From NCBI GenBank assembly GCA_032718475.1, contig JAUCBJ010001357.1:1-58877 (forward strand): a DNA stretch of 58,877 bases. Reading direction: 5' to 3'. Numbering within the stretch: the first letter of the stretch is position 1; every line of letters begins with the position of its first letter. A program made the position numbers and the translations under genes. A model generated the notes under the pieces. That model had not been told where the DNA came from and made no database searches. It was given only the letters and a program-made list of their open reading frames with translations. Positions 12,143-58,877 of the stretch are shown piece by piece. Source of the stretch: Nemertoderma westbladi. Taxonomy: Eukaryota > Animalia > Xenacoelomorpha.

Positions 12143-12173
12143 TTAATCATTTAACTTTTGTTTATCAGATAAA

Positions 12174-14010: not shown

Positions 14011-14125
14011 TACTACCAGCTAGGCACGCAGTCAGCCCGTGAGAGTCATACTTATTCAAACGAGGTTAGTTTTCCCTAACTACCAATAGATCGATTGAAA
14101 AATAATAATGTTTAATTTTCACCTT

Positions 14126-28915: not shown

Positions 28916-29715
28916 TATATTTCACTTTCCAGTATTCTCCCATGTGAAGAATACCCTTCAAATAATTTGTGGTGATGTGAAAGAAACAACTAATGTCTAT
29001 GTTCGCCCATTGCATCTATTGTCCCGTTATCATTACTATTTATTATTATCATTTATTATCCCTCAGATAAACGCGGTTGGTATTGTTGGTTGGAACTGCT
29101 TTTGATTCTATATTTAATGATGTAAATTTTTCAGTTAGTGGAGATTTTCGGGACGATACAAACCAATAACAAACAACCTAACAGATAACTGAATGGACAT
29201 AATATTATTAAGCTAAATGCTGGTTTATTCGTTTATTTTTATGTTACATTTATCGGAACCAAACTGCACCTAAAACTATCTGACTACATGACTATGTTGT
29301 AATACCTTCTGATTTTCAGTGGTCTATATTCTGATATTAGACTAATTTTAATTTCGTTCCCATGGTACCGTACCCAATATTGGCAGGAGGCAGTGAAGGG
29401 TAATATTCAGTTAATCCGCATCATATCGGTAAGTCAATTATTAAATAAATTAAATTGTTTCAGAGAATAATAATTAATGTAATTAATTCATATAAGTGTT
29501 ATTTATTATTACTTACTATGGTACGTGGTACGGTACTGAATTAGACCCTAGGCCTAACTAATTAATTGAACGTGTTGTAATAAAAGAAGTCTATTAATTA
29601 ATTACCTGCAATAATATGCCGGTTATCTTTACAGAAATCCACAGCGTCGATGTGGCTCCCAGATCCTTCAATCCGGTTGATAACCTCCCCAGTTACAGAA
29701 TTTATTATATTATAT

Positions 29716-30452
29716 TTATTTATATATATTCTCCCCAACAGCATCGATCCTCAACCCGTTGGGACTCAATACGATCTTCCGGACCTCAGGAGTTGCTTCC
29801 TGTCTCCACAAGGTCTCCCCTGTACCAACAACGAAGCGATGGATCATCCCTCCCTCACTTACCGACACCACAGTCTCCCCATCCGGACCCCAACACAGAC
29901 CCCAGACCCTCCCACTGTGCCCCCGGTATTGGTACAACAGCTCCCGGGTTCCGGTCCGCCAAACTTTTACTGTTCTATGCCGCGAACAGCTGGCCAACCG
30001 GGACCCGTTCGAGTCGAACCGAATACATTTAACCCACCCAGAATGCCCCACCCAGTTCGTAACCTTATAGTTCCTACCAGTTATTGATATAATAGAAATC
30101 CCCCCGACGTCCCCACATGTTGCTATGACGTCCCGGTTGGAGGGATTTATATCTATTCCCGCTCTACCCTCCCCCTCACCAACCACTAACTCCCACCCCG
30201 GTACCTCCACTACGACCCTCCAACCGCTCGCTTCCCGCTCCCAGACAGTCACCGAACCCCCAAGGTTCCCGAGGCAACGCGGTTCCCGTCCGTAGAAACC
30301 GCGACTGTGTAGTAATCGATAGAACCTCCGGATCGCGGTAGATATTCCTTTTCGTAGAGAGTCGATGAGTTTATGATACAGGGGAGGTTGTGAGACACAA
30401 AGACAAACTCTTCGGTACCCGGGATAAGTTTGAGATCCCGGATCGCCGCCAT
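29716..30452 (-). pseudogene. WD40-repeat protein (~245 codons), with one frameshift in a G homopolymer
   Basis: VAVSTDGNRVASG..VTVW, GHSGWVKCIRFDSNGSRLASCS..RTVKVW, GHSGRVWGLCWGPDG. Adding one base in the C5 run at 30257-30261 joins the two ORFs. Confidence 0.8.
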
Positions 30453-30768
30453 TGTTAGGGGAATTATTGAATCTAAAAGATAAAATAACATTTAACTATA
30501 ATTTATTCTTCTTAATCGAATATAATTATATATAATAAAGGGGGGGGGGGGGGGGGGGGGCGCTACCGGGCCCCGAAATCTAAATCTAATGGAATATATG
30601 TTATAGTACTTTTTTCTTTTATCATTTTTAGGCCTTTTTACATCACTCATAGGAAAGTACAATGTTATTCCCGTGCTCTGCCAGAAATGGCAACCATGCC
30701 TCAAAGAATAACTATTATACAGTGTTGTAGAAACCACTGTAACCCCGTATGCCGGCCATGCGTGTTAA

Positions 30769-32400: not shown

Positions 32401-34589
32401 GGGCATTTGTAAAACGAGGATACCAGCAAAATCCGCGGATCCTGTTGCGGATACCATAGAAGCAATGACGGATCCCAGTAGGATCCGCGGATCCTAGAAA
32501 CCACGGATCCGCGGATCCAATAATAGTCTATGGTATCCGCATTATACAAATTTGTAAAACGCGGATCCCATAGAAAACCATTAAGGCAGCGGATCCCATA
32601 GACATCATTGAATAACCTTTACATGTCTCTTATGGTGTCCGCTGTTTACAAATTTGTAAAGAGCGGATCCCGTTCATTCAATGCAAATACCGGTACAGTA
32701 GTTAGGCCTTAATTATGTAGTTAATAATAATAATAAGCGAGCATATATTCATATAGCATATATATAGCATATATACTGTCAGACTGTAGCATATATTCGA
32801 CAAATATATTGATATACAAAATAAACTAAAATATCACTGTATTTTTTTTATATAAATCACGAATATAAACGAGACCAAACAGTAAATTACAATAATAATA
32901 TAATATATAACATCTTGTGTACTGTACATCATGCCCTGGAATACAGTCTCATAATTAATTAACTACTAAAGTCTTACATAATACAAATCTTAATGAGATC
33001 GCTTTGGACGACCATATCCAGCTATTTCTCATCTACATTCAGCATATTTGGAATCCTTGTTAATTAAGTCTACCACCTATTTCACAGTAACCAACGATTG
33101 CTATAAGGTTGAGGAAAAAGGACTGGTGCAATATCGACGGAGACACTTTTTAAACGATTGCATCTAAAGAATGAAAGTGAGAATAAAAATTATGATTCAC
33201 ACCGCTAAAGGGTGAAAAGTGGCGAAACTATTTTGACTTTGAGTTATTCTTTTCATGATACAAATTAACAGGAAGATGACATAATACATAATTTATAAGT
33301 AAGACCTCATTAAATTTCAATTTATTAAAGAAATTAATACTGATAAATAAATAATTTTTTTATTAATTAACTTAATTACCGTACCTATTGTATCATACAT
33401 AATAATATTTTACCAGATTAATTATTAGATTTAAAATTATATCTAGGGCCTGAAGCGGTTAATTTTTCAGTCAACCGGTTAACCATTTCCAATTAACCGG
33501 TTAAAAAGTAGAAATGTTTGTGGTACAATGGTGCAACATACATACTACGGTACATACTATGAAACTGAAAGTTATATCGCTGACAGTCCCTAAACTTAAG
33601 CTACAGTACCGGTATGTATATTTTTATGTAAGCTAAGCTAAGAGGTATCCGTCCCTACTTGCAATACTGTTAAGTGCCTCTATTGCTCTATTGTGATAGA
33701 GCCACCGGTACTATAGTGTATGTATACTGTACTGTAGTCCTACAGCTGCATACAGTACAAAATGAATTTCTGAAACATCGCAATGGGAAATAAACATTAA
33801 TTAAAATGGTAACATACAGGTAATAAAACTGGTAACAGAACCTGAAAACCTCAAAATGGGACATTAAGCCGGTTAACCGGTTAATCAATTTATAACCGGA
33901 TAATTTGAATTAACCGGTTAACCGCTTCAGGCCCTAATTATATCATATTAAAGCTGTGCCAATTACCGTACCTATAGGCCTAATAAATAATATAAAAAAA
34001 AATTAAACAAAAAATTAACAAGCTATTATATCTACATCATATAGCCTATAAACAAAAGTCAATTTTATACATCAAGAGACTGTAAGGTAAATAAAACTAC
34101 CGGTATTTAATTTAATACCGGTCGAGGAAAGAATTAAGTGCATTTTTTAGAATACAATGACGCATATACGATATATACGTGTCTTTTTATTCTAAAAATT
34201 ATTGCACTTAATTATTTCCTAGAAACCCTGAATCTTATCCCTTAATCTATATGCTTAACTGTTAACTAACTACATAATTAAGGCCTAACTACTGTACCGG
34301 TATTTGCATTGAATGAACGGGATCCGCTCTTTACAAATTTGTAAACAGCGGACACCATAAGCGACATGTAAAGGATATTCAATGATGTCTATGGGATCCG
34401 CTGCCTTAATGGTTTGCTATGGGATCCGCGTTTTACAAATTTGTATAATGCGGATACCATAGACTATTATTGGATCCGCGGATCCGTGGTTTCTAGGATC
34501 CGCGGATCCTACTGGGATCCGTCATTGCTTCTATGGTATCCGCAACAGGATCCGCGGATTTTGCTGGGATCCTCGTTTTACAAGGGTAC
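32401..34589. mobile_element. Non-autonomous MULE/Foldback-like DNA transposon with ~320-bp TIRs
   Basis: 32407-32723 is the inverted copy of 34267-34583. The flanking direct repeat CAACAAACA (9 bp, extendable by 1-2 bp) is at 32392 and 34590. The TIRs are rich in GGATCC and CCGCGG. Confidence 0.8.
33444..33936. mobile_element. hAT-type MITE (493 bp) nested in the MULE-like element
   Basis: TIR TAGGGCCTGAAGCGGTTAA, 8-bp TSD ATTATATC on both sides, and subterminal AACCGGTT motifs. Confidence 0.9.
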
Positions 34590-34881
34590 CAACAAACAGA
34601 TAAATGGCCAATCACAGCGCCCTTCTTATCACCTACATGGAATGGGCCTGGCGCATGCGCATAACTGAACAGTATCTAAATCAATTTAGAAGAGCCACCC
34701 GTTTAGGTATAAAATGTATGAGTACAAAATATATGAGTTTTTTCCTGTATTGCTACTGCAGTACGTACAGAGTTTAACATTGTGTTTAGTTTAACATCCA
34801 TAGATTGTATAAATTATTAAGTAATTAAACAGGACTAAGGATGATCCAACTCTATAGCAAATGGAGCGGAAAAAATGAATT

Positions 34882-34953
34882 CGCCACCAGCGGGGATCGA
34901 ACCCGCGTCTCCCGATAAACGTCCAGGTATGCTAACCACTACACCACGGAGGC
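34882..34953 (-). ncRNA. tRNA-like Pol III unit (pseudo-tRNA/SINE head), minus-strand copy
   Basis: A box TGGTGTAGTGG, B box GGTTCGATCCC, followed by a T6 terminator. Confidence 0.65.
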
Positions 34954-35029
34954 TCCTGTATCTTGCTATTTCAATAGCAACCGTAAGGTGGCTTATCACC
35001 TATAGCAAATCATTCGGAAAGATGCAGGA

Positions 35030-35101
35030 GCCTCCGTGGTGTAATGGTTAGCATACCTGAACGTTTATCGGGAGACGCGGGTTCGATCCCCGCTGGTGGC
35101 G
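35030..35101 (+). ncRNA. tRNA-like Pol III unit (pseudo-tRNA/SINE head), plus-strand copy
   Basis: 72-nt cloverleaf with atypical anticodon loop ACGTTTA, one acceptor-stem mismatch, and T6 downstream. Confidence 0.65.
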
Positions 35102-36737
35102 AATTCATTTTTTCCGCTCAATTTGCTATAGAGTTGGATCATCCTACGTCCTGTTTAATTACTTAATAAATAATTAATTTGAAATATTTCAACTGAATAT
35201 TAATATAACTAGACGGGTGCATCAGTGGACTGTTGGTGTTTGCAATTAGATGGAATTCATATAAATTAATTTAAAAATTTCAAACTTGTTTTTCTCGGTG
35301 GTGCCAAATTTTGGTGCAGCACCAAATTTTTAAATATGTCAATTTTGTAAATTGATTGTTTGAATCTGTTTTTCACGCAATAGGGGTTTTTTGGGTTTCT
35401 GGTTTCGATAGAATATTCAGTATACGAGTTTCACCAGACGTATCAAACTTGTATTTTTCGGTGCAGTTTTGCAATTTTGGTGCCAGCACGAAATTTTGAA
35501 AATCCTTTCAATAGTTCAATTGCTTGTGACAACTTATTTCTCGCGTTTTAGAGGTTTATGGTTTATCTTAATGCAAAAGCCTTGTTTTTTTTCTCGGGAA
35601 AAAAAACTTCCAGGGTAAAAATATTTGTTCTAGAACATTATTTTTTCAATAACAAATAGCTGACATTTTTCTTGAACATTTAAAGAATTATTATCTAAAA
35701 TTAATTTGTGTTCATTTCGATCGTTCATTTGATTAAATTGCCGACTTGTTTTATTTTATTTGAACATAATATTATATTTGTTCCAGTTACCATTTAAAAA
35801 CTAAATAAAAAATATTTTAAAAATGCTGCAAAATTTTCAAAAAACGCTCACACATCGGGCTATGCTAAAGTGCCCCTTCAATATTACCCCTGTTTTATTG
35901 TTGACAACTGTTCTATTCCTATTAGCTATAAAAGTAACATAATTTTATAAGTATTTAAATTTGTCATTAATAGAAATTGTTTCCAACTTTATAACATAAT
36001 TTATTACCAGGTTATTTAGTTATTTTACGAGTTATTTACCCGAGGGACATGTTATAGACCCGAGGCGAAGCCGAGGGTTTATAACTGGCCCGAGAGCAGA
36101 TGTAGGTGAGAAATGGAGCCGATTGCACCGTAACATTTTTTTATTTTGGTTTTATATGGTTGGTGAAGCACAGCGCTGTTTGTAGGGTGACACGAGGTAT
36201 TCATACTTATTTGACATTGTAACGGGTTTGTAGTCGTAAAGTATGTGAAAGAGTCATTTTGAGTGAGACGGCCGGCTTTTCTAATCTTAACTATTTTTGT
36301 TTCTACCATATTTACTTCCATTCCGTTTCAAATGTTGTAACTTATTAAGGTATAATTGTTCTATTTCATGGCAGTGATTGCAAGAAGGTGTATTCTGAAA
36401 ATTTTCCAAATTTTTTTTACAATATTATAATGGATAGCTATTACTTTACTAAATCAGTAACAGTATTAGTTTGTTAAGACTCCGCCAACTTCGTGGCTCG
36501 CCTGACGACATTAATTAATCAAACGGATCTAGGACACTCCCCCACCCCCCCCCCCACCCCCGCAGTTAAAGTGTTGAAATTATTCTGGGTGCATCAAAGC
36601 AATAAACAAAAGTTAAAGATGGTTACAGGACAAGTTGTATCTAGACAAGTTTTTTCAAAATTATAAAAGAAACATTTTTATAGTCAAATTTTGTTTGTTT
36701 TTCTTTTAATTCCTTTAATTCGTTTAATTTCTTTTAA

Positions 36738-40200: not shown

Positions 40201-40610
40201 TTTTAAAACGGAGGTGAGACGTGGACACTGACTAAATCACTTGAACAACGAATTGATGGTTGCTACACAAGACTCCTGAGGGCAGCCCTAAACATCACCT
40301 GGAGACAACACATAAAAACGCCGTGCTTTATGGTACAAAACCACCTGTATCAACCACCCTCCGTGAACGCAGATTAAGATTCAGTGGGCACCGCTGGCGA
40401 AGTAAAGACGGGGTCATACCAGATCTACTTTTCTGGCGACCAACTCATGGAAAGCGTAGTCGTGTCCGACCGGCCATAACATATATAGATCAGCTTGAAA
40501 GGGATACTGAACTTGGGAGAAACGAAATTGCGACAACTATGGAGAATCGGGAAGCCTGGAAGGATCTCATTTCCACTATCCGAGTTCGCTCGACCTAGTA
40601 GTAGTAATAG
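40201..40610 (+). mobile_element. 5'-truncated RTE-clade non-LTR retrotransposon (RT thumb/C-terminus)
   Basis: ETWTLTKSLEQRIDGCYTRLLRAALNITW..., RRLRFSGH..R, LLFW.P.HGKRSR.RP, a (TAG)n tail, and TSD TATATAAACTAA at 40176 and 40611. Confidence 0.88.
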
Positions 40611-40794
40611 TATATAAACTAAGTTATTGTTTAAAAAACGTAGTTATATTAATTGCGTAGATATATATAATTAAATATTGTAAACACTTTGACAACTTGT
40701 TGGTTAGTTTATTGACAAAAGTAGCTTGATAAATTACGTGCGTACAGCATAAATCAATTAATAACAACATAAACTACAAAGCTTCTTTTATGTT

Positions 40795-43002
40795 ATGGCG
40801 GAATCAAACTCATACAAAATTACAGGAGATGGTAAACAATTATGTCTGATAATAAATATTACAGATTATCGCGGTACTAAATACTCTGTGCGACAGAGGA
40901 GAAGGGTCATCACATGATGTAAAAAACATTAAGGAAATATTTGGAGGCAAGTTGGGTTGTGAGATAGTAGAATATAGAGATGAGAAAGGTGAAGTGAAGA
41001 AGAACATAACAGATGATGAGTTGATACAATTCCTAACTGAATTTCGTAATCAGAAACAATTAAATGACATTGAGTGTCTTATTTGTATTCCTTATGAGTC
41101 ATGGAATTGAGGGTAAGCTTGTTTGTTCCAACAAAGTAACAGTACCTATAAAAAAAATTGTGGAACTATTCTCAACAGAATGTTTGGCACTAAGTGGTCC
41201 GGTTCCAAAACCTCGGATATTCTTTGTAGAAGCCTGCCAGTCCAACCCTTATCCAGACTTCGATTTAAATTTCGATGATCGTATATTTGAACATACAGCT
41301 GTAGCAATCGGTTGCAGTCCAGGTGAGACTGTTACCAATGTACAAAGACCAGGGGTCGACTTTCATACATCTATGTTTGTAAAGTAGTTAACAATATCCT
41401 AAATAAAAAAACAGCTGGGGATGATGTTAAAGTGGATTTATTACCAGTGTTGAGGAATTATAACATTGTGCATCGAGGTACAGATGAAAATTCTATTATA
41501 TCACATCCACAAATATATGACTATTTAGCAAAATCAGTACACCTTTTAGAATTTGTTCCACAAATTCCACCTGATTTTCCGCGCTGGTTAATTCCAAAGG
41601 TTCCCAATTATCACATTCCCCGCCCCGACATGGTAGACAAAGTTAGAAAGGGTCTGAATGAGCTGAAAGGTCAACCAGGTTGGGTAGTTATATCGGGAAT
41701 GGCTGCCATAGGGAAAACAACTTTGGCAATCGATTCAGTAAACGATGAAGTTTTTATAAATAAATACCCTCATGGTATATATTGGCAACACATTGGGCCA
41801 TTGGGAGTCGGTCCTGTTGGAGAGAATGCTCTCGTGCAGAAAATGAAAGAAATGCATTTAATGATAGATGAATCATCTCATCAGTTAGTCAGCCAGTTGT
41901 TCAGTATTAAGAGCTGCACAAGTGCTTTAAATAATATTATTAATAAGAAACCTCGTTGTTTGATTTTATTAGATGATGTTTGGGATAAATTTGTAATCCA
42001 AGCTTTCAATATAAGTTGCCCTATAATGGTAACTACTCGTGACATAAAATCCATTCCTTCAGATTATCCAAATGTATCATATATTTGTGTAAATGATGGG
42101 CTAAATGCCGCCCAATCTGAGAAACTACTCAGAATGTGGACTAGGCCCTGAGTTTATAATGTCAGCAGAAGCAAGAAATGTGATGAGAAAATGTTATGGC
42201 TCCCCATTGGCAGTGAATTTGGTTGGAGCTGTAAAAAGCGACAACTCTGAACTAACTTGGCAAGATATTGACGAATATCTGCCCGAATTAGATGGAACTG
42301 ATGCTGGTTTGGACTACGATAAATCAATAACTGCCACAATAAAACTTAGTGTTGATTATCTAACGCCAAAACTTAGAGAACTTTATATTAAACTAGCTGT
42401 TTTTGGGCAAGTTGGATGTCACGAATTTACAAGTGAAATAGTTGCTTTTTTAAGTAATTCAAATATTGGAGGTACACGATTATCGTTAAATCAACTGGTG
42501 AATAAATCACTTCTATCTAATAATTCTGAATCAAAACTTTGGTCTTTACATCCACTGCTTATGGCGTTTATTGAAAGACAAAAAGAAACAACTGAGACTC
42601 ATCGGCAATTAGTTGAAAATTATAAACCTTTTAACTTAAAATCTGGAGTGGATCCAAAGACATTAGACAAATATATGTTTGAATACCTGGCTAATCATAT
42701 GGCGAAAGCAACTCTCTGGGAAGAAAGACACCAACTACTAACTAACATTCTTTGGATTAAATCAAAGATTAAGTTCAGTGGACCTGCGAATCTTATTGCT
42801 GATTACGAATTGGCTGACCAGAAACTTTCGGAAGACCAAAAAGCAGAACAGGAAATATTCCGATCGACAATCCGTCGACTATGTGCGAACCTCACTGGGA
42901 CAGAAAGGTGCGACATAATTCAAGTCGGATTGATGGCTCCAAAAACATCGGGATTTTACAAAATGTCACGGGAAATCGCAGTTCAAGAGTTATGCAATGA
43001 TG
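40795..43002 (+). pseudogene. Caspase (peptidase C14)-APAF-1-like NB-ARC/helical-domain fusion; a single large exon with four 1-nt frameshifts
   Basis: Caspase part: CLIIN, REGSSHD, FLMSHG, KPRIFFVEACQ. APAF-1-like part: LKGQPGWVVISGMAAIGKT, LILLDDVWD, VTTRD, CYGSPLAV.LVGA, LVNKSLL, LH, WIKSKI...GPANLIADY, DIIQVGL. Splice donor G|GTAAGT at 43003. Confidence 0.82.
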
Positions 43003-43454
43003 GTAAGTGTGCAAACTAAATATGTAACACACTGTATAACCTACATAAAAATGTATAGAAGTAAGTGAGAGACATTGAGCTGAATTATAAAATTCGCACA
43101 ATCTATCCCAGTAACATACTATGGAATAATACGTAGTTAATGGATAAGGTGTAAGTTACCCATTACATGAGTGAGTTTCCACTCAACAGTCTTTCTAATA
43201 GTTATTTAATTAGTTTTAATGACGAAATGCATATCATTTAACAATAATTAAATAATTAACAATATACAACAAGCGCACTGACCGTCCAATAGTTGCATAA
43301 ACTTATATAACAGATAAACTCAAATACATAATAATACCCAACATTATTGATTAATGTAGATGGTATAATATTAATTAATGTAGCACAGAATATACTGTAC
43401 ATAAGTTTGTAAAATCTAAGTTTACGTAACTTCTGAGCGACTCAGGGCAATGTT

Positions 43455-43865
43455 ACAGGGGACTGTTAACTTAATCTGGAGATTGTGCGACATGAGACGG
43501 AGTCTGTTAACTCAATCCGGAGATTGTGCGACATGAGACGTAGTCTGTTAACTCAATCCGGAGATTGTGCGACATGAGACGGAGTCTGTTAACTCAATCT
43601 GGAGATTGTGCGACATGAGACGGAGTCTGTTAACTCAATCCGGAGATTGTGTGACATGAGACGGAGTCTGTTAACTCAATCCAGAGAGTGTGCGACATGA
43701 GACGGAGTCTGTTAACTCAATTCAGAGAGTGTGCGACATGAGACGGAGTCTGTTAACTCAATTCAGAGAGTGTGCGACATGAGACGGAGTCTGTTAACTC
43801 AATACGGAGATTGTGCGACAAGAGACGGAGTCTGTTAACTCAATCCGGAGATTGTGCGACATGAG
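43455..43865. repeat. 41-bp satellite array 1 (~10 copies)
   Basis: Unit GAGACGGAGTCTGTTAACTCAATCCGGAGATTGTGCGACAT. Confidence 0.95.
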
Positions 43866-46800
43866 CACACCACCCTTGAGTGGACATCTTGGTGAAGAAA
43901 AATGAACGCGAATTCTGTTTGCATATTTGGGTTTTTTGCCCAGAGTCAAAAAAATATAAAACGAAAATATTTCACGGACCTCTTTTAAGATTATTTAATA
44001 ATTTAATTATTAACTAATATTAATACTATTAAATCCATTAATAATAAATGAAAGTACTTAATACTTATTCTGTTACGTTGGTAATGTTCCCTAGAGTGAA
44101 AAAAATGTTTAACAAAAATAATTGGTGGAGCCCATGATTAATTATTTTATAACTAAATAATTAAAAAATAATATTATTGCTTGTCTTTAAACTTAATTAA
44201 CATTGAAAATACATAAAGCCCTGTGTCAATGTTGCTGCATATCTTAAACATTAAATGAAAAACATGTTTAGTCAACCTGTAATAATTTACTATTTAATAA
44301 TTAATTAATAATTAATATTAGAAAATTACAGATAACACAAATTATTGAATTGACTAATCTGCGTAAACTCAAATTATATTTAAAAGTTATTGAAATACAC
44401 AAAAATCTGATTCCAAAAACCGGAAATTACTACTTAAAGTTCGTTGGAACCATCAATAAAGGTATAATAATATGTTTATACTATCTAATTTAAATGGTTG
44501 GGTAAATTCTAAGCCCGCAAGTATTCTTAGCCCGCGGGTATTCTTACCCCGCGAGTTAGTAAAGGAGTAGGTTAGTAAAGGACCACGTTTCAGAGGCGTA
44601 CTGGGGGAACCAAAATAATAAACGTTATAGTTTTGCGGGCTAATAATATCCACGGACTAAGAATACTTGCGGGCTAAGAATACCCGCGGGCTAAGAATAC
44701 CCACGGGCTAAGAATACTCGCGGGCTAAGAATAATTGCGGGCTAAGAATACCCACGGGCTAAGAATACCCACGGGCTAAGAATACCCACGGGCTAAGAAT
44801 ACCCGCGGGCTAAGAATACCCACGGGCTAAGAATACTCGCGGGCTAAGAATAATCGCGGGCTAAGAATACCCACGGGCTAAGAATACCCACGGGCTAAGA
44901 ATACCCACGGGCTAAGAATACCCACGGGCTAAGAATACCCGCGGGCTAAGAATACCCACGGGCTAAGAATACTCGCGGGCTAAAAATAATCGCGGGCTAA
45001 GAATACCCACGGGCTAAGAATACCCACGGGCTAAGAATACCCACGGGCTAAGAATACCCACGGGCTAAGAATACCCGCGGGCTAAGAATACCCACGGGCT
45101 AAGAATACTCGCGGGCTAAGAATATTCGCGGGCTAAGAATACCCGCGAACTAAGAATACCCACGGGCTAAGAATACTCGCGGGCTAAGAATAATCGCGGG
45201 CTAAGAATACCCACGGGCTAAGAATACTCGCGGGCTAAGAATACTCGCGGGCTAAGAATACCCGCGGGCTAAGAATACCCACGGACTAAGAATGCTCGCG
45301 GGCTAAGAATAATCGCGGGCTAAGAATACCCACGGGCTAAGAATACCCACGGGCTAAGAATACCCACGGGCTGAGAATACCCACGGGCTAAGAATACTCG
45401 CGGGCTAAGAATACTCGCGGGCTAAGAATACTCGCGGGCTAAGAATACTCGCGGGCTAAGAATACCCACGGGCTAAGAATACTCGCGGGCTAAGAATACC
45501 CGCGGGCTAAGAATAATCGCGGGCCAAGAATAATCGCGGGCTAAGAATTCCTGAGACCATTTAAATATGTTATTTTTAATATCAATTGGTTGTTATGACC
45601 AGGTCTAACTAAAGTTTAACCATGGCAAGCATAATAATAATGTTATATAAATCAATTAAATGTTTGGCCAAAATGTAATTAGGCTAAGTTACATAATTCA
45701 ATAGTCTATATATATTATTATTACTATTACGTAATTTATTAAGAAGTAAATTTATCATAATTTAGTAGTTGTACTAATGCATGTCTAACAACTGATAGAA
45801 ACATATAGTAATATATATTAGTATGTATGTAATAATATACGTATTATAAACATAATAAGTACTGGTACAATTTCAAAAATAAAATAACCCATGATGATTT
45901 CTGCCGGACATTGTGATTTATTTTCTTAGGTAAAACAAAAAAGAGGCAGATGGGGGGGGGGGGGGGGGGGGGTGTTGGTTGACTGTGTGGATGGTAACAA
46001 AATTCATCCCGTTCCGGTGTAAAATTTACTCAAATAACAACAGATTACTCCAAATATTTAACAGTAGCCTAACATGTTAGAACGTGCCATGCCACTGTAA
46101 CCTGCTCATCTCCCTTAATTTGTAATTTAACATTGAGAAGATGTGTTAATTCACGCAGATTTGATTTATGCCCTGTTCCACCCCTCTCCTGCCTTAAAAT
46201 AAGACTCCCCTATTATGGTTAATTATCACTTTAAAACATCAGACAGTATAATTTGAAGGATGGATATGATATTAATGATTGTATATTATATAACAAATTG
46301 ATTGATTGATCTACAATAAAGTTTATAGTTTCTATAATTCTGATTTTTGATAACAGATGATCGAATATTTCAATAATTTCATACGATATACAGTAAGTTA
46401 CAACATTTGAATTTTAGATCTTATGCAGTAGGCCTATTATCACTTCAATAATAATCAAAGTTAAACGGCAATTTTAAAAAATTAATTAATTATTTAAATA
46501 ATAAATAATTATAGACCGACTCCACCATATTCCTAATTCAATATTTCCAACTTCAATCAACAATATGAAGTTTTACTTTATGTACTTAGAATGTTAATTA
46601 AATTTAAATGCAAGTTAATGTTATTAAAAATATTTATTATTTAGTAACTAAATAATTACAAATGGGTTCCATCAAAAATTGTTGTTTAACATTTTTTAGA
46701 CATCAGACAACATTGCCAACGTAACACCTTAATTAGTTAGTCCGTTCATTTAAAATTACTGGATTTAATATTATTAATAATAGTTAAAAATTAAATTATT

Positions 46801-46936
46801 TAATAATTTTAAAAGGGGACCGCAAAAAATTGTCGCTTTTTATTTTTTTGACGCAGGGCGCAAAACCTTACTCAAATATTCAAACAGAATTGGCGTTCAT
46901 TTTTCTTCACCAAGATGTTCACTCAAGGGTGGTGTG
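43866..46936. mobile_element. Non-autonomous CAC..GTG TIR transposon (Chapaev/CMC-like), copy 1
   Basis: TIR CACACCACCCTTGAGTG.ACATCTTGGTGAAGAAAAATGAACGC, imperfect over ~300 bp. 4-bp TSD TGAG taken from the satellite unit. Confidence 0.8.
44496..45558. mobile_element. GG..CC element with 8-bp TSD carrying a 17-bp satellite (GGGCTAAGAATACCCAC)n, copy 1
   Basis: TSD ATTTAAAT at 44488 and 45559. About 3 inverted units on the left and about 54 direct units on the right. Confidence 0.8.
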
Positions 46937-48334
46937 TGAGACGGAGTCTGTTAACTGAATCCGGAGATTGGGCGACATGAGACGGAGTCTGTTAACTCAA
47001 TCCGGAGATTGTGCGACATGAGACGGAGTCTGCTAACTGAATCCGGAGATTGGGCGACATGAGACGGAGTCTGTTAACTCAATCCGGAGATTGTGCGACA
47101 TGAGACGGAGTCTGTTAACTCAATCCAGAGATTGTGCGACATGAGACGGAGTCTGTTAACTCAATCCGGAGATTCTGCGAGATGAGACGGTGTCTGTTAA
47201 CTCAATTCAGAGAGTGTGCGACATGAGACGGAGTCTGTTAACTCAATCCGGAGATTGTGCGAGATGAGACGGAGTCTGTTAACTCAATCCGGAGATTGTG
47301 CGACATGAGACGGAGTCTGTTAACTCAATCCGGAGATTGTGCGTCATGAGACGGAGTCTGTTAACTCAATCCGGAGATTGTGCGAGATGAGACGGAGTCT
47401 GTTAACTCAATCCGGAGGTTGTGCGAGATTAGACGGAGTCTGTTAACTCAATCCGGAGATTGTGCGACATGAGACGGAGACTGTTAACTCAATCCGGAGA
47501 TTGTGTGAGATGGGACGGAGTCTGTTAACTCAATCCGGAGATTGTGCGACTTGAGACGGAGTTTGTTAACTCAATCCGGAGATTGTGCGACATGAGACAG
47601 AGTCTGTTAACTCAATCCGGAGATTGTGCGACATGAGACGGAGTCTGTTAACTCAATCCGGAGATTGTGCGACTTGAGACGGAGTCTGTTAACTCAATTC
47701 AGAGATTGTGCGACATGAGACGGAGTCTGTTAACTCAATCCGGAGATTGTGCGACTTGAGACGGAGTCTGTTAACTCAATCCGGAGATTGTGCGACATGA
47801 GACGGAGTCTGTTAACTCAATCCGGAGATTGTGTGAGATGGGACGGAGTCTGTTAACTCAATCCGGAGATTGTGTGAGATGGGACGGAGTCTGTTAACTC
47901 AATACGGAGATTGTGCGACAAGAGACGGAGTCTGTTAACTCAATACGGAGATTGTGCGACATGAGACGGAGTCTGTTAACTCAATCCGGAGATTGTGCGA
48001 CATGAGACGGAGTCTGTTAACTCAATCCGGAGATTGTGCGACATGAGACGGAGTCTGTTATCTCAATTCAGAGAGTGTGCGACATGATACGGAGTCTGTT
48101 AACTCAATTCAGAGAGTGTGCGACATGAGACGGAGTCTGTTAACTCAATTCAGAGAGTGTGCGACATGAGATGGAGTCTGTTAACTCAATTCAGTGAGTG
48201 TGCGACATGAGACGGAGTCTGTTAACTCAATTCAGAGAGTGTGCGACATGAGACGGAGTCTGTTAACTCAATTCAGAGAGTGTGCGACATGAGACGGAGT
48301 CTGTTAACTCAATACGGAGATTGTGCGACATGAG
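46937..48334. repeat. 41-bp satellite array 2 (~34 copies)
   Basis: Same unit as array 1. Confidence 0.95.
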
Positions 48335-51300
48335 CACACCACCCTTGAGTGGACATCTTGGTGAAGAAAAATGAACGCGAATTCTGTTTGCATATTTGGG
48401 TTTGTTGCCCAGAGTCAAAAAAATATAAAACGAAAATATTTCACGGACCTCTTTTAAGATTATTTAATAATTTAATTGTTAACTAATATTAATACTATTA
48501 AATCCATTAATAATAAATGAAAGTACTTAATACTTATTCTGTTACGTTGGTAATGTTCCCTAGAGTGAAAAAAATGTTTAACAAAAATAATTGGTGGAGC
48601 CCATGATTAATTATTTTATAACTAAATAATTAAAAAATAATATCATTACTTGTCTTTAAACTTAATTAACATTGAAAATACATAAAGCCCTGTGTCAATG
48701 TTGCTGCATATCTTAAACATTAAATGAAAAACATGTTTTAGTCAACCTGTAATAATTTACTATTTAATAATTAATTAATAATTAATATTAGAAAATTACA
48801 GATAACACAAATTATTGAATTGACTAATCTGCGTAAACTCAAATTATATTTAAAAGTTATTGAAATACACAAAAATCTGATTCCAAAAACCGGAAATTAC
48901 TACTTAAAGTTCGTTGGAACCATCAATAAAGGTATAATAATATGTTTATGCTATCTAATTTAAATGGTTGGGTGAATTCTTAGCCCGCAAGTATTCTTAG
49001 CCCGCGGGTATTCTTACCCCGCGAGATAGTAAAGGAGTAGGTTAGTAAAGGACCACGTTTCAGAGGCGTACTGGGGGAACCAAAATAATAAACGTTATAG
49101 TTTTGCGGGCTAATAATATCCACGGACTAAGAATACTTGCGGGCTAAGAATACCCGCGGGCTAAGAATACCCACGGGCTAAGAATACTCGCGGGCTAAGA
49201 ATAATTGCGGGCTAAGAATACCCACGGGCTAAGAATACCCACGGCCTAAGAATACCCACGGGCTAAGAATACCCGCGGGCTAAGAATTCCCACGGGCTAA
49301 GAATACTCGCGGGCTAAGAATAATCGCGGGCTAAGAATACCCACGGGCTAAGAATACCCACGGGCTAAGAATACCCACGGGCTAAGAATACCCACGGGCT
49401 AAGAATACCCGCGGGCTAAGAATACCCACGGGCTAAGAATACTCGCGGGCTAAGAATAATCGCGGGCTAAGAATACCCACGGGCTAAGAATACCCACGGG
49501 CTAAGAATACCCACGGGCTAAGAATACCCACGGGCTAAGAATACCCACGGGCTAAGAATACCCGCGGGCTAAGAATACCCACGGGCTAAGAATACTCGCG
49601 GGCTAAGAATACTCGCGGGCTAAGAATACCCGCGGACTAAGAATACCCACGGGCTAAGAATACTCGCGGGCTAAGAATAATCGCGGGCTAAGAATACCCA
49701 CGGGCTAAGAATACTCGCGGGCTAAGAATACTCGCGGGCTAAGAATACCCGCGGGCTAAGAATACCCACGGGCTAAGAATACTCGCGGGCTAAGAATAAT
49801 CGCGGGCTAAGAATACCCACGGGTTAAGAATACCCACGGGCTAAGAATACCCACGGGCTAAGAATACCCACGGGCTAAGAATACTCGCGGGCTAAGAATA
49901 CTCGCGGGCTAAGAATACTCGCGGGCTAAGAATACTCGCGGGCTAAGAATACCCACGGGCTAAGAATACTCGCTGGCTAAGAATACCCGCGGGCTAAGAA
50001 TAATCGCGGGCCAAGAATAATCGCGGGCTAAGAATTCCTGAGACCATTTAAATATGTTATTTTTAATATCAATTGGTTGTTATGACCAGGTCTAAAGTTT
50101 AACCAGGGCAAGCATAATAATAATGTTATATAAATCAATTAAATGTTTGGCCAAAATGTAATTAGGCTAAGTTACATAATTCAATAGTCTATATATATTA
50201 TTATTACTATTACGTAATTTATTAAGAAGTACATTTTTCGTAATTTAGTAGTTATACTAATGCATGACTAACAACTGATAGAAACATATAGTAATATATA
50301 TTAGTATGTATGTAATAATATATTATAAACATAATAATTACTGGTACAATTTCAAAAATAAAATAACCCATGATGATTTCTGCCGGACATTGTGATTTCT
50401 TTTCTTAGGTAAAACAAAAAAGAGGCAGATGGGGGGGGGGGGGGGGGGGTGTTGGTTGACTGTGTGGATGGTAACAAAATTCATCCCGTTCCGGCGTAAA
50501 ATTTACTCAAATAACAACAGATTACTCCAAATATTTAACAGTAGCCTAACATGTTAGAACGTGCCATGCCACTGTAACCTGCTCCTCTCCCTTAATTTGT
50601 AATTTAACATTGAGAAGATGTGTTAATTCACGCAGATTTGATTTATGCCCTGTTCCACCCCTCTCCTGCCTTAAAATAAGACTCCCCTATTATGGTTAAT
50701 TATCACTTTAAAACATCAGACAGTATAATTTGAAGGATGGATATGATATTAATGATTGTATATTATATAACAAATTGATTGATTGATCTACAATAAAGTT
50801 TATAGTTTCTATAATTCTGATTTTTGATAACAGATGATCGAATATTTCAATAATTTCATACGATATACAGTAAGTTACAACATTTGAATTTTAGATCTTA
50901 TGCAGTAGGCCTATTATCACTTCAATAATAATCAAAGTTAAACGGCAATTTTAAAAAATTAATTAATTATTTAAATAATAAATAATTATCGACCGACTCC
51001 ACCATATTCCTAGATCAATATTTCCAACTTCAATCAACAATATGAAGTTTTACTTTATGTACTTAGAATGTTAATTAAATTTAAATGCAAGTTAATGTTA
51101 TTAATAATATTTATTATTTAGTAACTGAATAATTACAAATGGGCTCCATCAAAAATTGTTGTTTAAAATTTTTTAGACATCAGACAACATTGCCAACGTA
51201 ACACCTTAATTAGTTAGTCCGTTCATTTAAAATTACTGGATTTAATATTATTAATAATAGTTAATAATTAAATTATTTAATAATTTTAAAAGGGGACCGC

Positions 51301-51413
51301 AAAAAATTGTCGCTTTTTATTTTTTTGACTCAGGGCACCAAACCTTACTCAAATATTCAAACAGAATTGGCGTTCATTTTTCTTCACCAAGATGTTCACT
51401 CAAGGGTCGTGTG
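48335..51413. mobile_element. Non-autonomous CAC..GTG TIR transposon, copy 2 (tandem duplicate, period ~4.47 kb)
   Basis: Near-identical to 43866-46936, with the same TGAG TSD and the same nested element. Confidence 0.8.
48966..50045. mobile_element. GG..CC element with 17-bp satellite, copy 2 (17 bp longer than copy 1)
   Basis: Same ATTTAAAT TSD and termini. Length is 1080 bp versus 1063 bp. Confidence 0.8.
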
Positions 51414-51903
51414 TGAGACGGAGTCTGTTAACTGAATCCGGAGATTGGGCGACATGAGACGGAGTCTGTTAACTCAATCCGGAGATTGGGCGACCTGAGA
51501 CGGAGTCTGTTAACTCAATCCGGAGATTGTGCGACATGAGACGGAGTCTGTTAACTCAATCCGGAGATTGTGCGAGATGAGACAGTGTCTGTTAACTCAA
51601 TTCAGAGATTGTGCGACATGAGACGGAGTCTGTTAACTCAATCCGGAGATTGTGCGAGATGAGACGGAGTCTGTTAACTCAATCCGGAGATTGTGCGACA
51701 AGAGACGGAGTCTGTTAACTCAATCCGGAGATTGTGCGTCATAAGACGGAGTCTGTTAACTCAATCCGGAGATTGTGCGAGATGAGGCGGTGTCTGTTAA
51801 CTCAATCCGGAGGTTGTGCGAGATGAGACGGAGTCTGTTAACTCAATCCGGAGATTGTGCGACATGAGACGGAGACTGTTAACTCAATCCGGAGATTGTG
51901 TGA
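51414..51903. repeat. 41-bp satellite array 3 (~12 copies), cut by LTR copy C
   Basis: The array ends mid-unit at GATTGTGTGA|TGTAAAAG. Confidence 0.93.
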
Positions 51904-53069
51904 TGTAAAAGCTTTTGCGTAATTAGCCGGTTATTTTCCCCGTAAAGTACTCTGTAGTTGGTTTACTGGGCATAAAAAGGCCGTGTCCTTACTGTACTGG
52001 TGTTTTAGAGGACATAAAAGCCATTTCTTCTGTATTTGTACTTTAGAGGACATAATCCGCAATTTCGGGACGCAATAAGCTCGATACTCTTGAAAACAGT
52101 GTCGCTACCATGACGACGGCTAACAGCTGATATTGCCACGTCGACATTTCTTTGTTTCTTTGTTCTCTCGTTGTTCGGTCGACCAATCAGAGCGTTTTTT
52201 GTCTCTGTGTTGGAGGTGGATACAGAAACTCAGGAATTCAGTGTTATGTTTTTGCCCAGAGCCTAAGAACACCGGCTTTTGGCACCTCCGTGTTTCAGTC
52301 TTTAGTCTTACATTAGTAGGCTTAATTATAGAACGTATATCTGTTATCGAGTTAACGAGTTACCTTATCAATGCTTACTAAACATATCATGCATATCTTA
52401 CTTAACATTACTGCTTTTGCTGTCGGTTATTCATTATATTTGTTGATGGAAGATTATATTTGGAATACTGATCAATAGTCAGACACCCAACCTTCTTGAT
52501 ATACTAAAGGTTAGAGAGACCGGTTACAGATAAACGATTGCGACCTATGTTAAGTGGTTTGAAGTGAATCTAATGCTATTTTATAGGCCCTACATGTATT
52601 GTCTGTTATTCTCTTTGTATGTGACTAAAATTAGTGAAGGTCGGCAGATTGGTGTGCAGCATTGTGCAGCATTGTGTATGATTGTGACTGATAACAAAGC
52701 ATCTCCTAAAGAATGCGCCATATACGTGAATCTATAGCCTTTTCGTTGTGTCTAGTTTAAGTCATAACTCTGTTTACATATTTAGAGCGCCACGTCCTAA
52801 AGGAACTGTTAATATTTCCCGAAAGTGAATAATATTTGTCAGAGATTATATATTACGATCAGTCGAATAATACGGTAGGCTTACACCATCAATCATTAAG
52901 CTTCCGAATTCAGTCTCCCGGGTATATCCAGCGGGTGAATGATTGCGCATAGACTGGCTTCGGCTAATGTAGTGTATCAAATACTCGTCATAGGCTAAAG
53001 ACTATATATCATCTAAAAGACATCCTAATTTGGCAGGTTAAACTGTCAAAGGTCTTAAAAGCGCAAACA
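51904..53069 (+). repeat. 5' LTR of copy C (~1.17 kb)
   Basis: TGTAAAAGCTTTTGCG...GCGCAAACA, colinear with 27717-28915. Confidence 0.9.
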
Positions 53070-55252
53070 ATAACAGATATTGCTTCTGGATTGCGGTGTA
53101 AGCAATCTAGTCGAAAGTACCGGTCGACCGGTAACCAGTAGGCCTGACTGCCTGATCATCCGGACCGGTACTTACACGTACAGGTACAGCAGTATTATTC
53201 GATTTTGATAATTATATACCGGTAGGCCTTAATAATTAATCAGGGACTGCAGCCCTGGTTTTTTATTGAGATTTTACTTATTTCTGTCAGTTTTATTTAT
53301 TTGTAGGCCAGTATTGAGCAGAAGGCGTGTAAGCTTGCTCAGTCTATACAGACAATTGTAGGCTGGACTGTTGTTGTCTGGCTGTTGTTGGGTCTGAACG
53401 GATTGCAGTGTGTGTAGAGTCTGTCCGATAAAGTACGGTTAGGAAGTAGGGGCAGCCAGAGCTGTAAGGTCAATCCCCACCTAAAGAATAAGTCGTACTA
53501 CCGTGTTAGAACGCATACTAACTAACCATTTTGGAATCTGCACATACTGTAGTTTATTTAGGCTTGATAGTAGTCTGCCAGCGTTTGGTCTGTACTTTGT
53601 TTGTGTAGTCTGTACGGGTAGCGTATAATTTTATTTAGATAATTTGTAGGCTGGATAGTTGTCTGACTGTTGTTGGGTTTGAGGAAATTTCGGTGTGTGT
53701 AGAGCATCTGTCCGATCAAGTGCTAGTTGGGAACGTAGGGGCTTCAAGTGCTGTGAGGTAAACCCCCTGTGAAAGAATAAGTCGTACTACTGGGTTAGAA
53801 CGCATACTAACTAATCATTTCGGAGTCTGCATATACCGTAGTTTGTTTAGGCTTGATAGTAGTCTGTCAGTATTTGGTCTGCATTTTGTTTGAGTGGTTT
53901 GTACGCGTAGCGTAATATTTATTATTCAGAGTTTATGCGATTATTCGCAACATTCATATCCCCAAGTTTATTCCTACAGTAATTGTGTTTGTTATACATA
54001 CCGTTATAGTTAAACTAACCCCGGTACTACATCAGGGCTGCTCGGCGTAGGTAAAGACTGGAGATTTTATGCTTTGGTCACTCCGGCAGATACCGTGGTT
54101 CTTTTAGCTGTTCAAGTATTTTTAACTACTGATTATTTGTTGTACAAGTACTTGTACCTAATTTAGGGTTTAGTGTACAGTACTTTCCGAAGGTGATTAG
54201 TGTGTAGGCAGTATATTTGTGTTGTAAAGTGGTTAATAGGCACGTTGGTTCTGGTAGACCGCGGTAATTAATCTCTAGGTAGGAACACTCCGTGATACAT
54301 AACGTAGTACCTATAGCGATACGGTTATAGGTCGTCAGACGGTGGTATTTTCCTATCTGGACAGCGCAGTATATTTACTACTACTTATTATTTTCAAATA
54401 CCGTAGTAACCTGTCCGTTGTAATAACCAGATATTCTAACCCTTTGTTAGGCTGGTTTGTAGATTCTTGTAAAATTACCCTAAAAATTTCGTATTTGTAA
54501 ATTTTTGTGTTTATTTAGAGATTGTAATCTCAACCCGAATTGTACGTAATTTGTAGTATTAAGTAACTTAGGTAAATTAGAATTATTTGTTTTAGTGTCC
54601 AACAAGTAGCACTCCACTGAGAGCGCACAGCTTCTGTGTAGTGACTCCCCCCAGAAATAATAACATTTATTTCAAATATTGACAAAACCCATTTTAAACG
54701 GGTATATATATATTATAAATCAACTCAAACGATTTATAAATAGTAGGCCTGCCATACAACAATTAGGTCTCAATATCAGTTGGACTACTGCTTAAATAAC
54801 GGTAATAAAGTAAGTAAAGTAACCTTACCAAGTAACCCTTAAAAATTCAGAAATTCAATTATTTAAAATAATTGACATACCGGTATTTACGATAGGCCTA
54901 TTATCTTTATTTCTATAAATTTAGGCTGAAATCATACCGGTATTCTGCAATTAATTCTAGTCCAGAATTATACTTATATATACTATAAGTAGGCTGTATA
55001 CCGGTATTCACGATAGGCCTATTATATATTTATATATTTGTGCTAAAATTATACCGGTATTCTGTAACAAACCTAGTCTGTAATAATACTTATATATATA
55101 CTATAAGCATACCGGTATTCTAATATATTATATATATCACGCTACACTGAGTAGCAGTATCGGTAATTAATTGTTAGGCTAACAGTGATACTGAATTACT
55201 AGACTTGCTTTAACTGTAATATAGCAGTAGGCATTCAACTATACAATCAAAC

Positions 55253-58200
55253 ATGGCTGACACAAGGCAAACTCTGTCAGATAGTCTCCTAGAAACAACA
55301 GCCTGTTTCTCAGATCAAAGTGTAGAGAATCCCAGACCGAGGTCTGAAACCCCTCATACTGTAAGAAGGGCGACCCCTGCAGTGGTTGTGTCAGAACCTA
55401 GGTTGGTAGAAGCGATTTCGCAATTTGCGAAGTTAGTGAAGCGCCGTTGGTCTGCCATAGGCACTCGGGCCCAAGTCAAGCGGGATCAAGAAGCAGCTGT
55501 CAAACAGCAGCAACATCCTAGCCAAGAACCTAGTTTTCAGCGGCCCGATAGCTCCAGTAGTTCGGATACTGTTGAGCGGACGCCCGAACGCGGAGCGAAG
55601 ATGGCGGATAAGGTTTATGATGAGTGGCCAACCTATGAAGAATCAACCGACGCCACTTTTTCTCAAGAAGAAAGCGAAGTGACAGCAGAGAAACCGCATA
55701 AGAGGGATGCTATTGATATCTATCTGTCAGACTATCAACGTTTCTTAGGTGATGAAGAGTTGAGGAGAAGGTTGGACGGACTTAACCCTAATAGTGAAGG
55801 AGCACAGCGTGTGCTTGACGCCATCGACGTGGATAGGTTAGCAGCGAACCAAGCTAAATTCGATGAACAACTCCGCATCGCTAGAGACCAAGAAGAAAGG
55901 GTGAAGAAGAAACGCATAGAAGACAGAAAGAAAGCAGCAGTAGCAGCTGCAGAAGCCGAAAGATCTCCTGCTCGGACAGATGCAGGAGACCGTTCAGCAA
56001 TTCAAGGGCACAGTAAGGGAAAGTAGGTTAGAGTTGCAAGAAGTGCAGCAAAGTATCGCGCTAGAACGCGATAAATTAGTAAATACACAAAGGGGTATAC
56101 CACCACCCCCTGTAACAATGTGTCAACCTGTTAGGTCTGAAGTATCTCATGCGCAAGGTGTGGAGCCTACACGCATCTATACTGCTAGCAAAGTAGAAAC
56201 TCCTATAGTGAACCCTATTAAGGGTAATTATAGACCTGTTGATAATGACATTCCCTATAGACCTGATCATAATCCGAGAAATTTATATACCGATAACTCG
56301 ATATTAAATAACACGATGGCCCAAGAAAGTTTTACGCGTCAAATGGCTAGAACCGAAGCCCGGCAAGCGGTAAAGGTGGGAGAGATAGTCAAGTTCAATG
56401 GAGATGAGATGAAATGGTTGCCTTTTAATGAATATTATAAAGATAACATACAGAACTCTGTACTATCTAATGGAGAGAAACTTAGATTCCTCATCGAGTG
56501 CTTGGAAGGATCTCCCAAGTTAATGGCGTTAAAGTTTATTGGACATCCAGACGGATTAAGACAAGTTTGGGATACACTAAACATCAGGTATGGTAATAGG
56601 AATAACATAGCTAGGTATTTGTATGCAAAATTAATGGCGCCCCGAAAGTTTCTTAGCAGCGGGATTATAGAGTTTTCCGATGAGATTCAGGAGATCTGTA
56701 GACAATTAGATTGGCTAGGTAAGTCTCATGAATACCAGAATTATATGGTTGTAGGAGCCTTAGCATCTACTTTGCCCAAGGGTGGAGTAGGTACACGCTG
56801 GGACAAGAAAGTGTTATATATGATGGAACAACAACGACGAGACCCTACCATGGCTGATCTCATGTCATTCTTAGATGGAGAAGTGAAATTACAGCTCCTA
56901 AGGCAGTCCAGAGAGAAGACACTGGAAAACAAGGTAAGTGAGAAACCCGTTTCTAGGAGAAGGGTAACACCAGTGTGTTATACAGACGACGGCGAAAGCC
57001 AGACTTCTCAAGGAGAGGATAGCGGGAAAGACACTGAAAGATCTTATTATGTCAATAAAACGCCTAAAGACCAGGTAAGTAAATTCAAGTCTCGAACCAA
57101 TGACAGGAGAGAACAGGTAAGAAAAACTCCTCCTACGTCTCCCAAGAGAATTCAGGTGAGAAAGCCCGAGGAAAGAACGAACGTGCACCACACAGCACAT
57201 GTTAAAGTAAGTAACATCAAGCCCAAATGTGTGCTGTGCGATGGGCCCCACCGTTTAAGTGCGTGTGATGAATTCCTGAGGAAATCACTAAAGGACAGAC
57301 GTGAAGTCATGTGGGATAAGCGGTTGTGTTATAATTGCCTCAGACGAGGACACCAACGGCGAACCTGTTACTCCGACGTAAGGTGTGCAAAGTGCGGCGC
57401 AAAACATCATATCTTGTTGCACACGGAATTCGAACGAAACAGCCCGAGTCAGGTAAGTGAGTCCGAACTACATGTCCAATTCAGTGATGTGAACGACACT
57501 GACCAATATTCTGAGATGGAAGGATTCTATACGGACGAATTCTCCAACGAAAACGAATCCTGTTACCTAACAAATACCGCAGTGTATCGAGCACTTACGT
57601 ATGAAAAAGACACCGACAGCGAGCCCCCCCTAACTACTTCTGACAGACAACCATCTTGGAAAGCACCACCTTCCAATGTAGGAATCCGAGAATTTCCTGT
57701 AGTACAGGTAAGGGTCCACGGACCTAAAAGGAGTTATGTAGTGAACGCCCTCCTTGACTCCGGTAGTACAGGAACATTCATCGACAAAGAACTAGCCGAA
57801 GACATCTTTGCTGGACAACCCAAGTTCCGAACTAAGCTAAACATGTCAGGAATTATGCAGGTTTGGAAATCTACAGTAATCAGCAGATTATTATGTAGGT
57901 GCGTTGTCCACCCCCCAGGATGAACTAGGAGAACACAGCATAAGGTCAGTAAAAATGTTAGCGATAAAGAACTTCGCGACCAGCCAAGTGGAACCTTATA
58001 ACTGGGATGAGGACGATTTCACCCAGCAGTTTGAAATACCTAGATTCAACACCGATTACCCTGGAGTCCAAATACTCATCGGTCAAAATGCGCATGAAGC
58101 GCTCGAGACATTGGAGAAACGGCCTGCTCAACCGCAACCTCTACAAGTTTATGCGGGAAGAACTAGAGTAGGTTGGTACTTTACTGGCCCTTCTCGTAGA

Positions 58201-58659: not shown

Positions 58660-58877
58660 CAACATACGGAGTGGGTGTGTGACTACATTATTTTATATTT
58701 ATTTTATTATTTTATATTATGTATGTATTATTATGTAATTTTATTATAATCGTTTTCTTTAATTTTATTTAGTAGAATGTTATTTAGTGATTATTTAGTA
58801 GATTAGTGCAATATATTAGTGTTTATTACTTAATTACTTATATATTATATTTAGTGCGACGGCGAGAAATAATTATT

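Follow-up and report, generated by a model that had tools for sequence, protein, structure and literature searches.

The window, that is, the whole stretch of 58,877 nucleotides that was analysed (Nemertoderma westbladi, contig JAUCBJ010001357.1), contains on its forward strand one long exon in which a caspase domain is followed directly by a region resembling the nucleotide-binding core of APAF-1. When the extra letters of five frame breaks were removed, positions 40795-43016 (+) formed a single stop-free frame of 738 codons. The features of the exon, with the basis of each, are as follows:

40795..40797, +, likely start codon (in-frame stops upstream; the caspase core follows after ~5 residues)
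40795..41291, +, caspase large-subunit half, residues 1-164 (Pfam C14, PDB, Atlas)
41292..41545, +, putative caspase small-subunit half, residues ~165-250 (position, length, motif resemblance)
41546..41590, +, proline-rich linker of ~15 residues, the fusion junction (open frame; X4 contig 27)
41591..42260, +, nucleotide-binding NB-ARC domain with the first part of HD1 (Pfam, PDB, predicted model)
42261..43002, +, rest of HD1, winged-helix domain (WHD) and APAF-1 helical domain HD2 (Pfam, PDB, motif counts)
43003..43008, +, phase-1 splice donor GTAAGT (sequence; the last exon letter, G at 43002, is followed by GTAAGT)
40888, 41078, 41330, 41371 and 42141, +, five frame-breaking insertions (absent from the contigs of 4/4 runs)

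A preliminary description of this DNA had proposed four shifts of one nucleotide in the exon. Frame breaks were indeed found there, but they number five rather than four and one of them comprises 4 letters: at 40888 the assembly carries 4 surplus letters, and at 41078/81, 41330, 41371/73 and 42141 a single one. All five are insertions in the assembled stretch with no stop codon among them, and insertions without stops are a pattern of long-read error. Of 8 runs listed, four, all of DNA, cover the stretch, and read support came from their short-read contigs. The four runs belong to three studies, are all under one species label and come from samples other than that of the assembly. The contig evidence was drawn from the 32 pieces listed out of 403, and the gene was covered by overlapping contigs, none of them full-length. 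Across the frameshifts, where a check of the reads had been suggested, each of the five insertions was missing from 95-100% of the contig depth in 4/4 DNA runs. The breaks are therefore most likely insertion errors of long reads, or else private to the assembled haplotype.

The X4 contigs 25, 26 and 27 (40600-40949, 40927-41186 and 41157-41811) tile positions 40600-41811 at a depth of 68-77 and lead from the start codon through His101, Cys146 and the junction to Walker A. They show 2, 4 and 7 differences from the stretch, respectively, all among the differences listed, and those in frame create no stop. The His and Cys codons are identical in contigs 26 and 27, and contig 27 (653 nt) links the catalytic Cys146 to the Walker A/P-loop within one contig. 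The frame across the junction is open in the assembly itself (ORF 41327-42151), which, together with the bridging contig, bears out the earlier placement of caspase and NB-ARC in one frame. An intact caspase-NB-ARC fusion is thus present as DNA whichever cause the breaks have, and the concern that no intact fusion might exist does not hold at the DNA level, as the intact form occurs in other samples. In the assembly, the frame breaks would conceal the gene from automatic annotation.

The likely start codon lies about five residues ahead of the caspase core, so that no prodomain would be encoded in this exon. The sole AG acceptor that keeps both the frame and the first caspase motif (40780) is poor, with 7/20 pyrimidines. 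Another AG, at 40824, was dropped as an acceptor, as its use would remove what we take, by eye, to be that motif. The large-subunit half contains the Arg33 region, His101 (41100), Glu144 (41229), Cys146 (41235) and a short acidic loop, and thus the His-Cys dyad characteristic of caspases (C14A); the SHG motif at 41097-41105 and the EACQ motif at 41229-41240 are located where they had been reported. Pfam Peptidase_C14 matched 41064-41384 (E=2.8e-7) and 40901-41095 (E=0.0055), a PDB sequence search with the caspase piece returned caspase-3/2/8 (E 6e-4 to 1e-3), and in the Atlas the catalytic piece was placed with eukaryote caspase clusters (27/30 matches, best 0.92). The short N-terminal piece alone had no significant caspase match in PDB or Pfam, and the small-subunit half had no significant profile, PDB or Pfam match. 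For this half, likeness to animal caspase motifs was judged by eye, and in a predicted model of residues ~190-445 the small-subunit part had a pLDDT of 46-61 and was uninformative there.

The residues expected to determine substrate specificity were also compared. According to one study (PMC2064784), the Asp-binding S1 pocket of caspases is formed by Arg179, Gln283 and Arg341, and para- and metacaspases have Asp at 283 and Asp or Glu at 341. In the fusion, the Gln283 position holds Glu144, which was read directly, and Arg33 lies near the Arg179 position, offset by one. The Arg341 position presumably corresponds to Met180, assigned by eye from the motif register. Neither the basic Asp-type pocket Arg179/Gln283/Arg341 nor the acidic S1 pair of para- and metacaspases (Arg/Lys type) was found; of Glu and Met, just one is acidic. 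Of the three residues of the Asp pocket, two appear changed. With Glu144 standing for Gln283, and Met180 for Arg341 under the assigned register, the domain has likely lost the ability to cut after Asp, or has it in weakened form. The EACQ motif had been taken as a hint of altered specificity, and the apparent change of the pocket, direct for Glu144 and by register for Met180, points the same way. Judged by its sequence, the domain is closer to true caspases than to para- or metacaspases, and it is not a typical Asp-specific caspase.

The part of the exon after the junction resembles APAF-1. Pfam identified NB-ARC (E=4.2e-16) and APAF1_C (E 2.3e-23 to 2.6e-23), and PDB sequence matches covered APAF-1 residues ~119-280 and ~308-590 (E 8e-25 and 8e-22). 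The NB-ARC motifs comprise Walker A (41696-41719, with Lys305), Walker B Asp391 (41972), sensor-I Arg413 (42038) and GxP (42198). A predicted NB-ARC model, made with a 20-homolog alignment, had pLDDT >90 in most blocks from residue ~80 on, and its top Foldseek match was APAF-1 (1z6t, E 4.5e-14); this likeness adds little, because the alignment was made of APAF-1 homologs. The WHD and HD2 (APAF1_C) that mark Apaf-1-like proteins are both present, the former with a match to the APAF-1-like_WHD family at just E 0.12 and with its His kept. The motif GMAAIGKT at 41696-41719 and the resemblance to the APAF-1 NB-ARC and helical domain were found as described previously, and Walker A is atypical, as had been pointed out: its position 4 is Ala in the fusion and Gly in 37/37 animal-side rows. 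Since the GxxxxGKT frame is retained, Ala at this position is weak evidence of a defect. In the WHD, His583 is kept and the next residue is Pro584, compared with Asp in 29/37 animal-side rows. Both the Walker A Ala and Pro584 recur in contigs whose differences fall at other sites. The nucleotide-switch residues Lys305, Asp391, Arg413 and His583 are all kept.

Both ends of the exon were also compared with APAF-1. A profile built from 30 APAF-1 N-termini found no CARD in the window (best E 1.6). An APAF-1 in the strict sense has an N-terminal CARD (PMC10959488), and within the window the caspase occupies its place, although a CARD exon farther upstream, beyond the window, is conceivable; by sequence the protein is Apaf-1-like rather than a strict APAF-1. 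At the other end, the donor after 43002 is located where the WD40 region begins in APAF-1, and the unspliced frame would stop at 43017-43019, after 738 residues. The X2 contig 16 (42982-43200) shows 1 difference across the donor, and a diverged loose end in X1 (2 contigs, agreement 0.63) starts GTAAG at 42988, in the same phase and 15 letters earlier. The lack of a CARD and the donor at the exon end, both noted in the preliminary description, were thus recovered. No WD40 exon was found in 43003-58877, either by tblastn with 12 APAF-1 proteins or with a WD40 profile, and the exon contained no effector domain other than the caspase. A separate WD40-repeat ORF is present at 29601-30495 (-) (E 4.8e-17); because it precedes the fusion and runs on the other strand, it is not the sensor exon of the latter.

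The surrounding DNA is rich in mobile and repeated elements. Downstream of the donor there are tandem repeats, followed by a BEL/Pao-like element. The repeats at 43463-51900 have a unit of ~4.47 kb (97% alike over 3979 letters) built of 41- and 17-letter arrays. The BEL/Pao-like retrotransposon (53273-58877) encodes DUF1759 and an aspartyl protease, and its 5' 2 kb are 82% alike to 1279-3245 on the other strand. Upstream of the exon, a LINE-like 3' remnant, recognised by eye, occupies 40207-40615; its short TAG repeat ends ~190 letters before the fusion start codon, and a TATA-like run is located near 40662. A Polinton/Maverick-like element at ~4800-20400 contains a P-loop ATPase (5501-6178, +), an rve integrase (6797-7333, +), a C5 protease (11684-12139, +) and a TBP-family ORF (14126-14716, -, E 6e-9), and a TBP-like gene within such an element may deserve attention. 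The same element has a long interrupted frame (14661-18317, -) that had no Pfam match and that carries what we take, by eye, to be a family B polymerase-like motif. A RING-like ORF was recognised by eye at 4797-5171. At 23367-27638 (+), long open frames of 191, 296 and 934 codons follow one another in a single phase; all three had no Pfam match. A 317-letter inverted pair (32407-32723 and 34267-34583, 99%) and a 356-letter palindrome (34814-35169, 88%) are like small non-autonomous DNA transposons.

To place the fusion among its relatives, we searched the NB-ARC piece against 1.84 billion representatives with phmmer and obtained 499 matches. Identity was at most 41% among the 150 matches listed, the top matches had 30-35% identity, and the named ones among them were animal APAF-1. 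Pfam annotation of 37 of the 150 (25 families shown for each) found C14 in P0093 and CHAT in P0051, one each, and P0111 has the order C14-NB-ARC-WD40 with caspase-like motifs recognised by eye. By their clade, P0093, P0111 and P0051 were taken as prokaryote-type. The caspase region of the fusion had no match to any of the 150 listed NB-ARC relatives in a local phmmer search, and pairwise comparison with two prokaryote-type C14 domains remained at shuffle level, with 270/1000 shuffles scoring as well in the case of P0111. Word-based searches for longer proteins gave 0/105 and 0/46 candidates with the caspase piece and 0/699 with the NB-ARC piece, the last being a weak blank in which APAF-1 itself was missed. 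Metagenome scans found no relatives. Since none of the protein and metagenome searches returned a homolog with the same domain order from another animal, the family is so far represented by a single species label.

Phylogenetic analysis associated the NB-ARC with the animal APAF-1 clade. A mixture-model tree of 47 rows (the query and 46 picked from the 150 listed) grouped the query with 32 APAF-1-like rows, 8 of them named animal, and split it from 14 prokaryote-type rows at 100/100. An AU test rejected a clade of the query with P0111 and its sister P0133 (p-AU 0.00165; P0133 joined the constraint after the tree had been seen), and thus common NB-ARC descent with these prokaryote-type caspase-STAND fusions. 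The query formed a long branch in both this tree and a quicker, simpler tree of 64 rows, in which it joined the branch linking the two groups, just beyond the animal side (37 rows). A separate clade of short APAF-1-like NB-ARC fragments (P0002, P0003, P0006, P0007, P0008, P0020 and P0030; 100/99) adjoins Oscarella, and P0008 is also without Gly at Walker A position 4. Because the NB-ARC groups with animal APAF-1 and not with the prokaryote-type fusions, the fusion likely arose in an animal lineage; the simplest reading of these sequences would be a new fusion of an animal caspase with an animal APAF-1 paralog.

Differences among the contigs were used as a record of selection. In total there were 166 differences, of which 40, selected for support, were listed and 38 of these were in frame; alleles, paralogs and assembly errors are mixed among them. 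Synonymous changes made up 17/38 of the listed in-frame differences, compared with 21% expected (p=0.001), third codon positions held 22/38, and 21/38 changed a residue. In the caspase part, 7/8 listed differences alter the residue. A difference at 41917, present in some X3/X4 contigs, would be a stop. Besides the five breaks, the in-frame indels (+6, -9, +3 and +3) were in 4/4 cases multiples of three, and the contigs bearing them, which are ~90% alike to the stretch, point by their sequence to frame-keeping paralogs. Several contigs skip 113-598 letters, which indicates that decayed copies exist as well.

Two alternatives concern how the locus came about. Horizontal transfer of a bacterial caspase-like/STAND fusion would account for 2.2 kb without an intron and for the quick tree that left the query outside the animal rows, and such fusions do exist (P0093 and P0111; PMC3501461, PMC13581612). 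It is very improbable and largely refuted, since the best sequence and structure matches, HD2 included, are to animal APAF-1, the mixture-model tree and AU test oppose it, and the caspase matches animal caspases and not P0111. The locus could instead be a young or decaying chimera, in which an intronless caspase copy was inserted, in frame, ahead of an exon of an APAF-1 paralog within transposon-rich DNA; the family would then be drifting or unexpressed, and the haplotype of the window could itself be a true null allele. The LINE-like remnant ending ~200 letters upstream, the occurrence of stop-bearing and deleted copies, and the Walker A and WHD departures, which fit relaxed constraint, are all in line with such a chimera. 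Against these stand the 738-codon frame, open in samples from three studies, the excess of synonymous differences (p=0.001), the paralog indels that keep the frame in 4/4 cases, and the five breaks, which as insertions without stops fit the pattern of long-read error; we regard a decaying chimera as distinctly improbable.

Two other alternatives accept a maintained protein and concern its working. The caspase domain may be not an effector but a bait or scaffold. The NB-ARC switch would then be tripped, or its signal transmitted, when a pathogen protein such as a viral caspase inhibitor binds or cuts the domain, or when the domain pairs with a free caspase, comparable to the integrated decoys of plant receptors. 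The S1 pocket that looks altered (Glu144 and Met180; pocket as defined in PMC2064784), the strong divergence of the domain (best PDB E 6e-4) and the predominance of residue-changing differences in the caspase part (7/8 of those listed) would be expected of a bait. We consider this unlikely, as His-Gly and Cys are kept and are the same in the bridging contigs, and the domain is in the N-terminal effector position of an exon without any other effector domain. It is also conceivable, and in our view quite unlikely, that the protein has no WD40 sensor, that it ends at the 43017 stop (738 residues) or in a short exon, and that it is activated by CED-4-like release of an inhibitor or by expression alone, with the Pro after the WHD His perhaps loosening auto-inhibition. 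In APAF-1, HD2 is the arm carrying the WD40 propellers, and here this domain is fully kept. A consensus donor follows exactly after HD2, the diverged contig shows a phase-matched GT 15 letters upstream, and the downstream repeats and retrotransposon are what an intron might hold. A sensorless form would, on the other hand, explain why no WD40 exon was found in the following 15.9 kb, and Apaf-1 homologs without WD40 are described in two reports (PMC2246300; BbeApaf-J, PMC11747288).

We consider it moderately probable that the exon encodes a working one-chain apoptosome-like receptor, in which assembly of a ring would switch on the receptor's own protease. From the parts, the frame and the ancestry described above, together with the established biology of APAF-1, we infer the following course. 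The monomer would rest in a closed state on ADP. A ligand would bind a C-terminal sensor, probably WD40 repeats encoded in exons past the donor at 43003, and nucleotide exchange would then open the monomer and allow a ring to form, as in APAF-1. From its anatomy, the caspase would be tethered via the end of its last strand, the usual dimer interface, about 15 residues from the hub, at the site where APAF-1 carries its CARD. With the tether at this position, the ring would join neighbouring caspase domains and dimerise them without CARD recruitment. Instead of classical executioner caspases, the target of the protease may then be a dedicated substrate, within a form of cell death that belongs to immunity or is triggered by damage.

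Comparison with known systems shows which parts of this design are shared. In animal APAF-1 (CARD-NB-ARC-HD2-WD40, acting on caspase-9 in trans), residues ~119-590 are colinear with the NB-ARC, WHD and HD2 of the fusion, whereas the fusion has the caspase in place of the CARD, substitutions of the Walker A Gly (position 4) and of the WHD Asp, and no WD40 in the window. Bacterial Apaf-1 orthologues and metacaspase-NB-ARC/NACHT-WD40 proteins (P0093 and P0111; PMC13581612 and PMC3501461) share the protease-STAND arrangement, their protease standing where the CARD would be, and the same direct mechanism has been proposed for them; PMC3501461 lists metacaspase-NACHT-WD40 proteins and two Chloroflexus metacaspase-NB-ARC proteins. 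Their protease is meta- or paracaspase-like and their NB-ARC belongs to another clade, whereas both parts are animal-type here, and the design is therefore likely convergent. Invertebrate Apaf-1-like paralogs, like the fusion, are lineage-specific APAF-1-type NB-ARC proteins with a swapped N-terminus, and the N-termini named in the accessible parts of PMC2246300, PMC10959488, PMC6321704 and PMC4083563 are double CARD, DD, DED, TIR and glycosyl transferase, with no caspase among them. Across the accessible parts of these four and of PMC11747288, PMC11463336 and PMC3879445, the partners named are CARD, double CARD, DD, DED, TIR and glycosyl transferase, with caspase absent from them, and PMC12373286 offered nothing on the subject. 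The amphioxus TNFR-caspase and LRR-caspase 'shortcut' fusions (PMC2575513) place an animal caspase directly on a receptor and bypass adaptors; unlike the fusion, they are without a STAND ATPase, and their caspase, with QACXG intact, forms the C-terminal part. Fungal NLRs with an N-terminal CHAT or S8 protease (PMC12881547) are eukaryotic protease-effector STAND proteins in cell death, with protease families and a NOD lineage that differ from those of the fusion. No animal caspase-NB-ARC fusion was found in the accessible text of open-licence PMC and bioRxiv papers, and architecture figures, supplements and subscription papers could hold one. The protease-STAND architecture is already published for bacteria.

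We see an even chance that an animal lineage, drawing on a caspase and an APAF-1 of its own, rebuilt a small family of apoptosome receptors that are one-chain proteins and whose protease is not Asp-specific, convergent with bacterial effector-STAND proteins. What defines an animal apoptosome is that a separate caspase is recruited through CARD-CARD contacts, and a caspase-APAF-1 covalently joined in nature would demonstrate that apoptosomes can do without this step. Whether the apoptosome activates caspases by proximity-driven dimerisation or by allosteric contact has long been debated. If the proposed reading is true, the fusion would be a simple system for this question, in which nature itself tests if simple dimerisation by a ring is what activates caspases when there is no CARD disk. 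It would also extend the protease-STAND design, which is published for bacteria and fungi, by an animal case that was reached independently. A caspase that has an altered S1 pocket and is controlled by a STAND switch would further imply a substrate, and a death or immune pathway, as yet unknown in this lineage.
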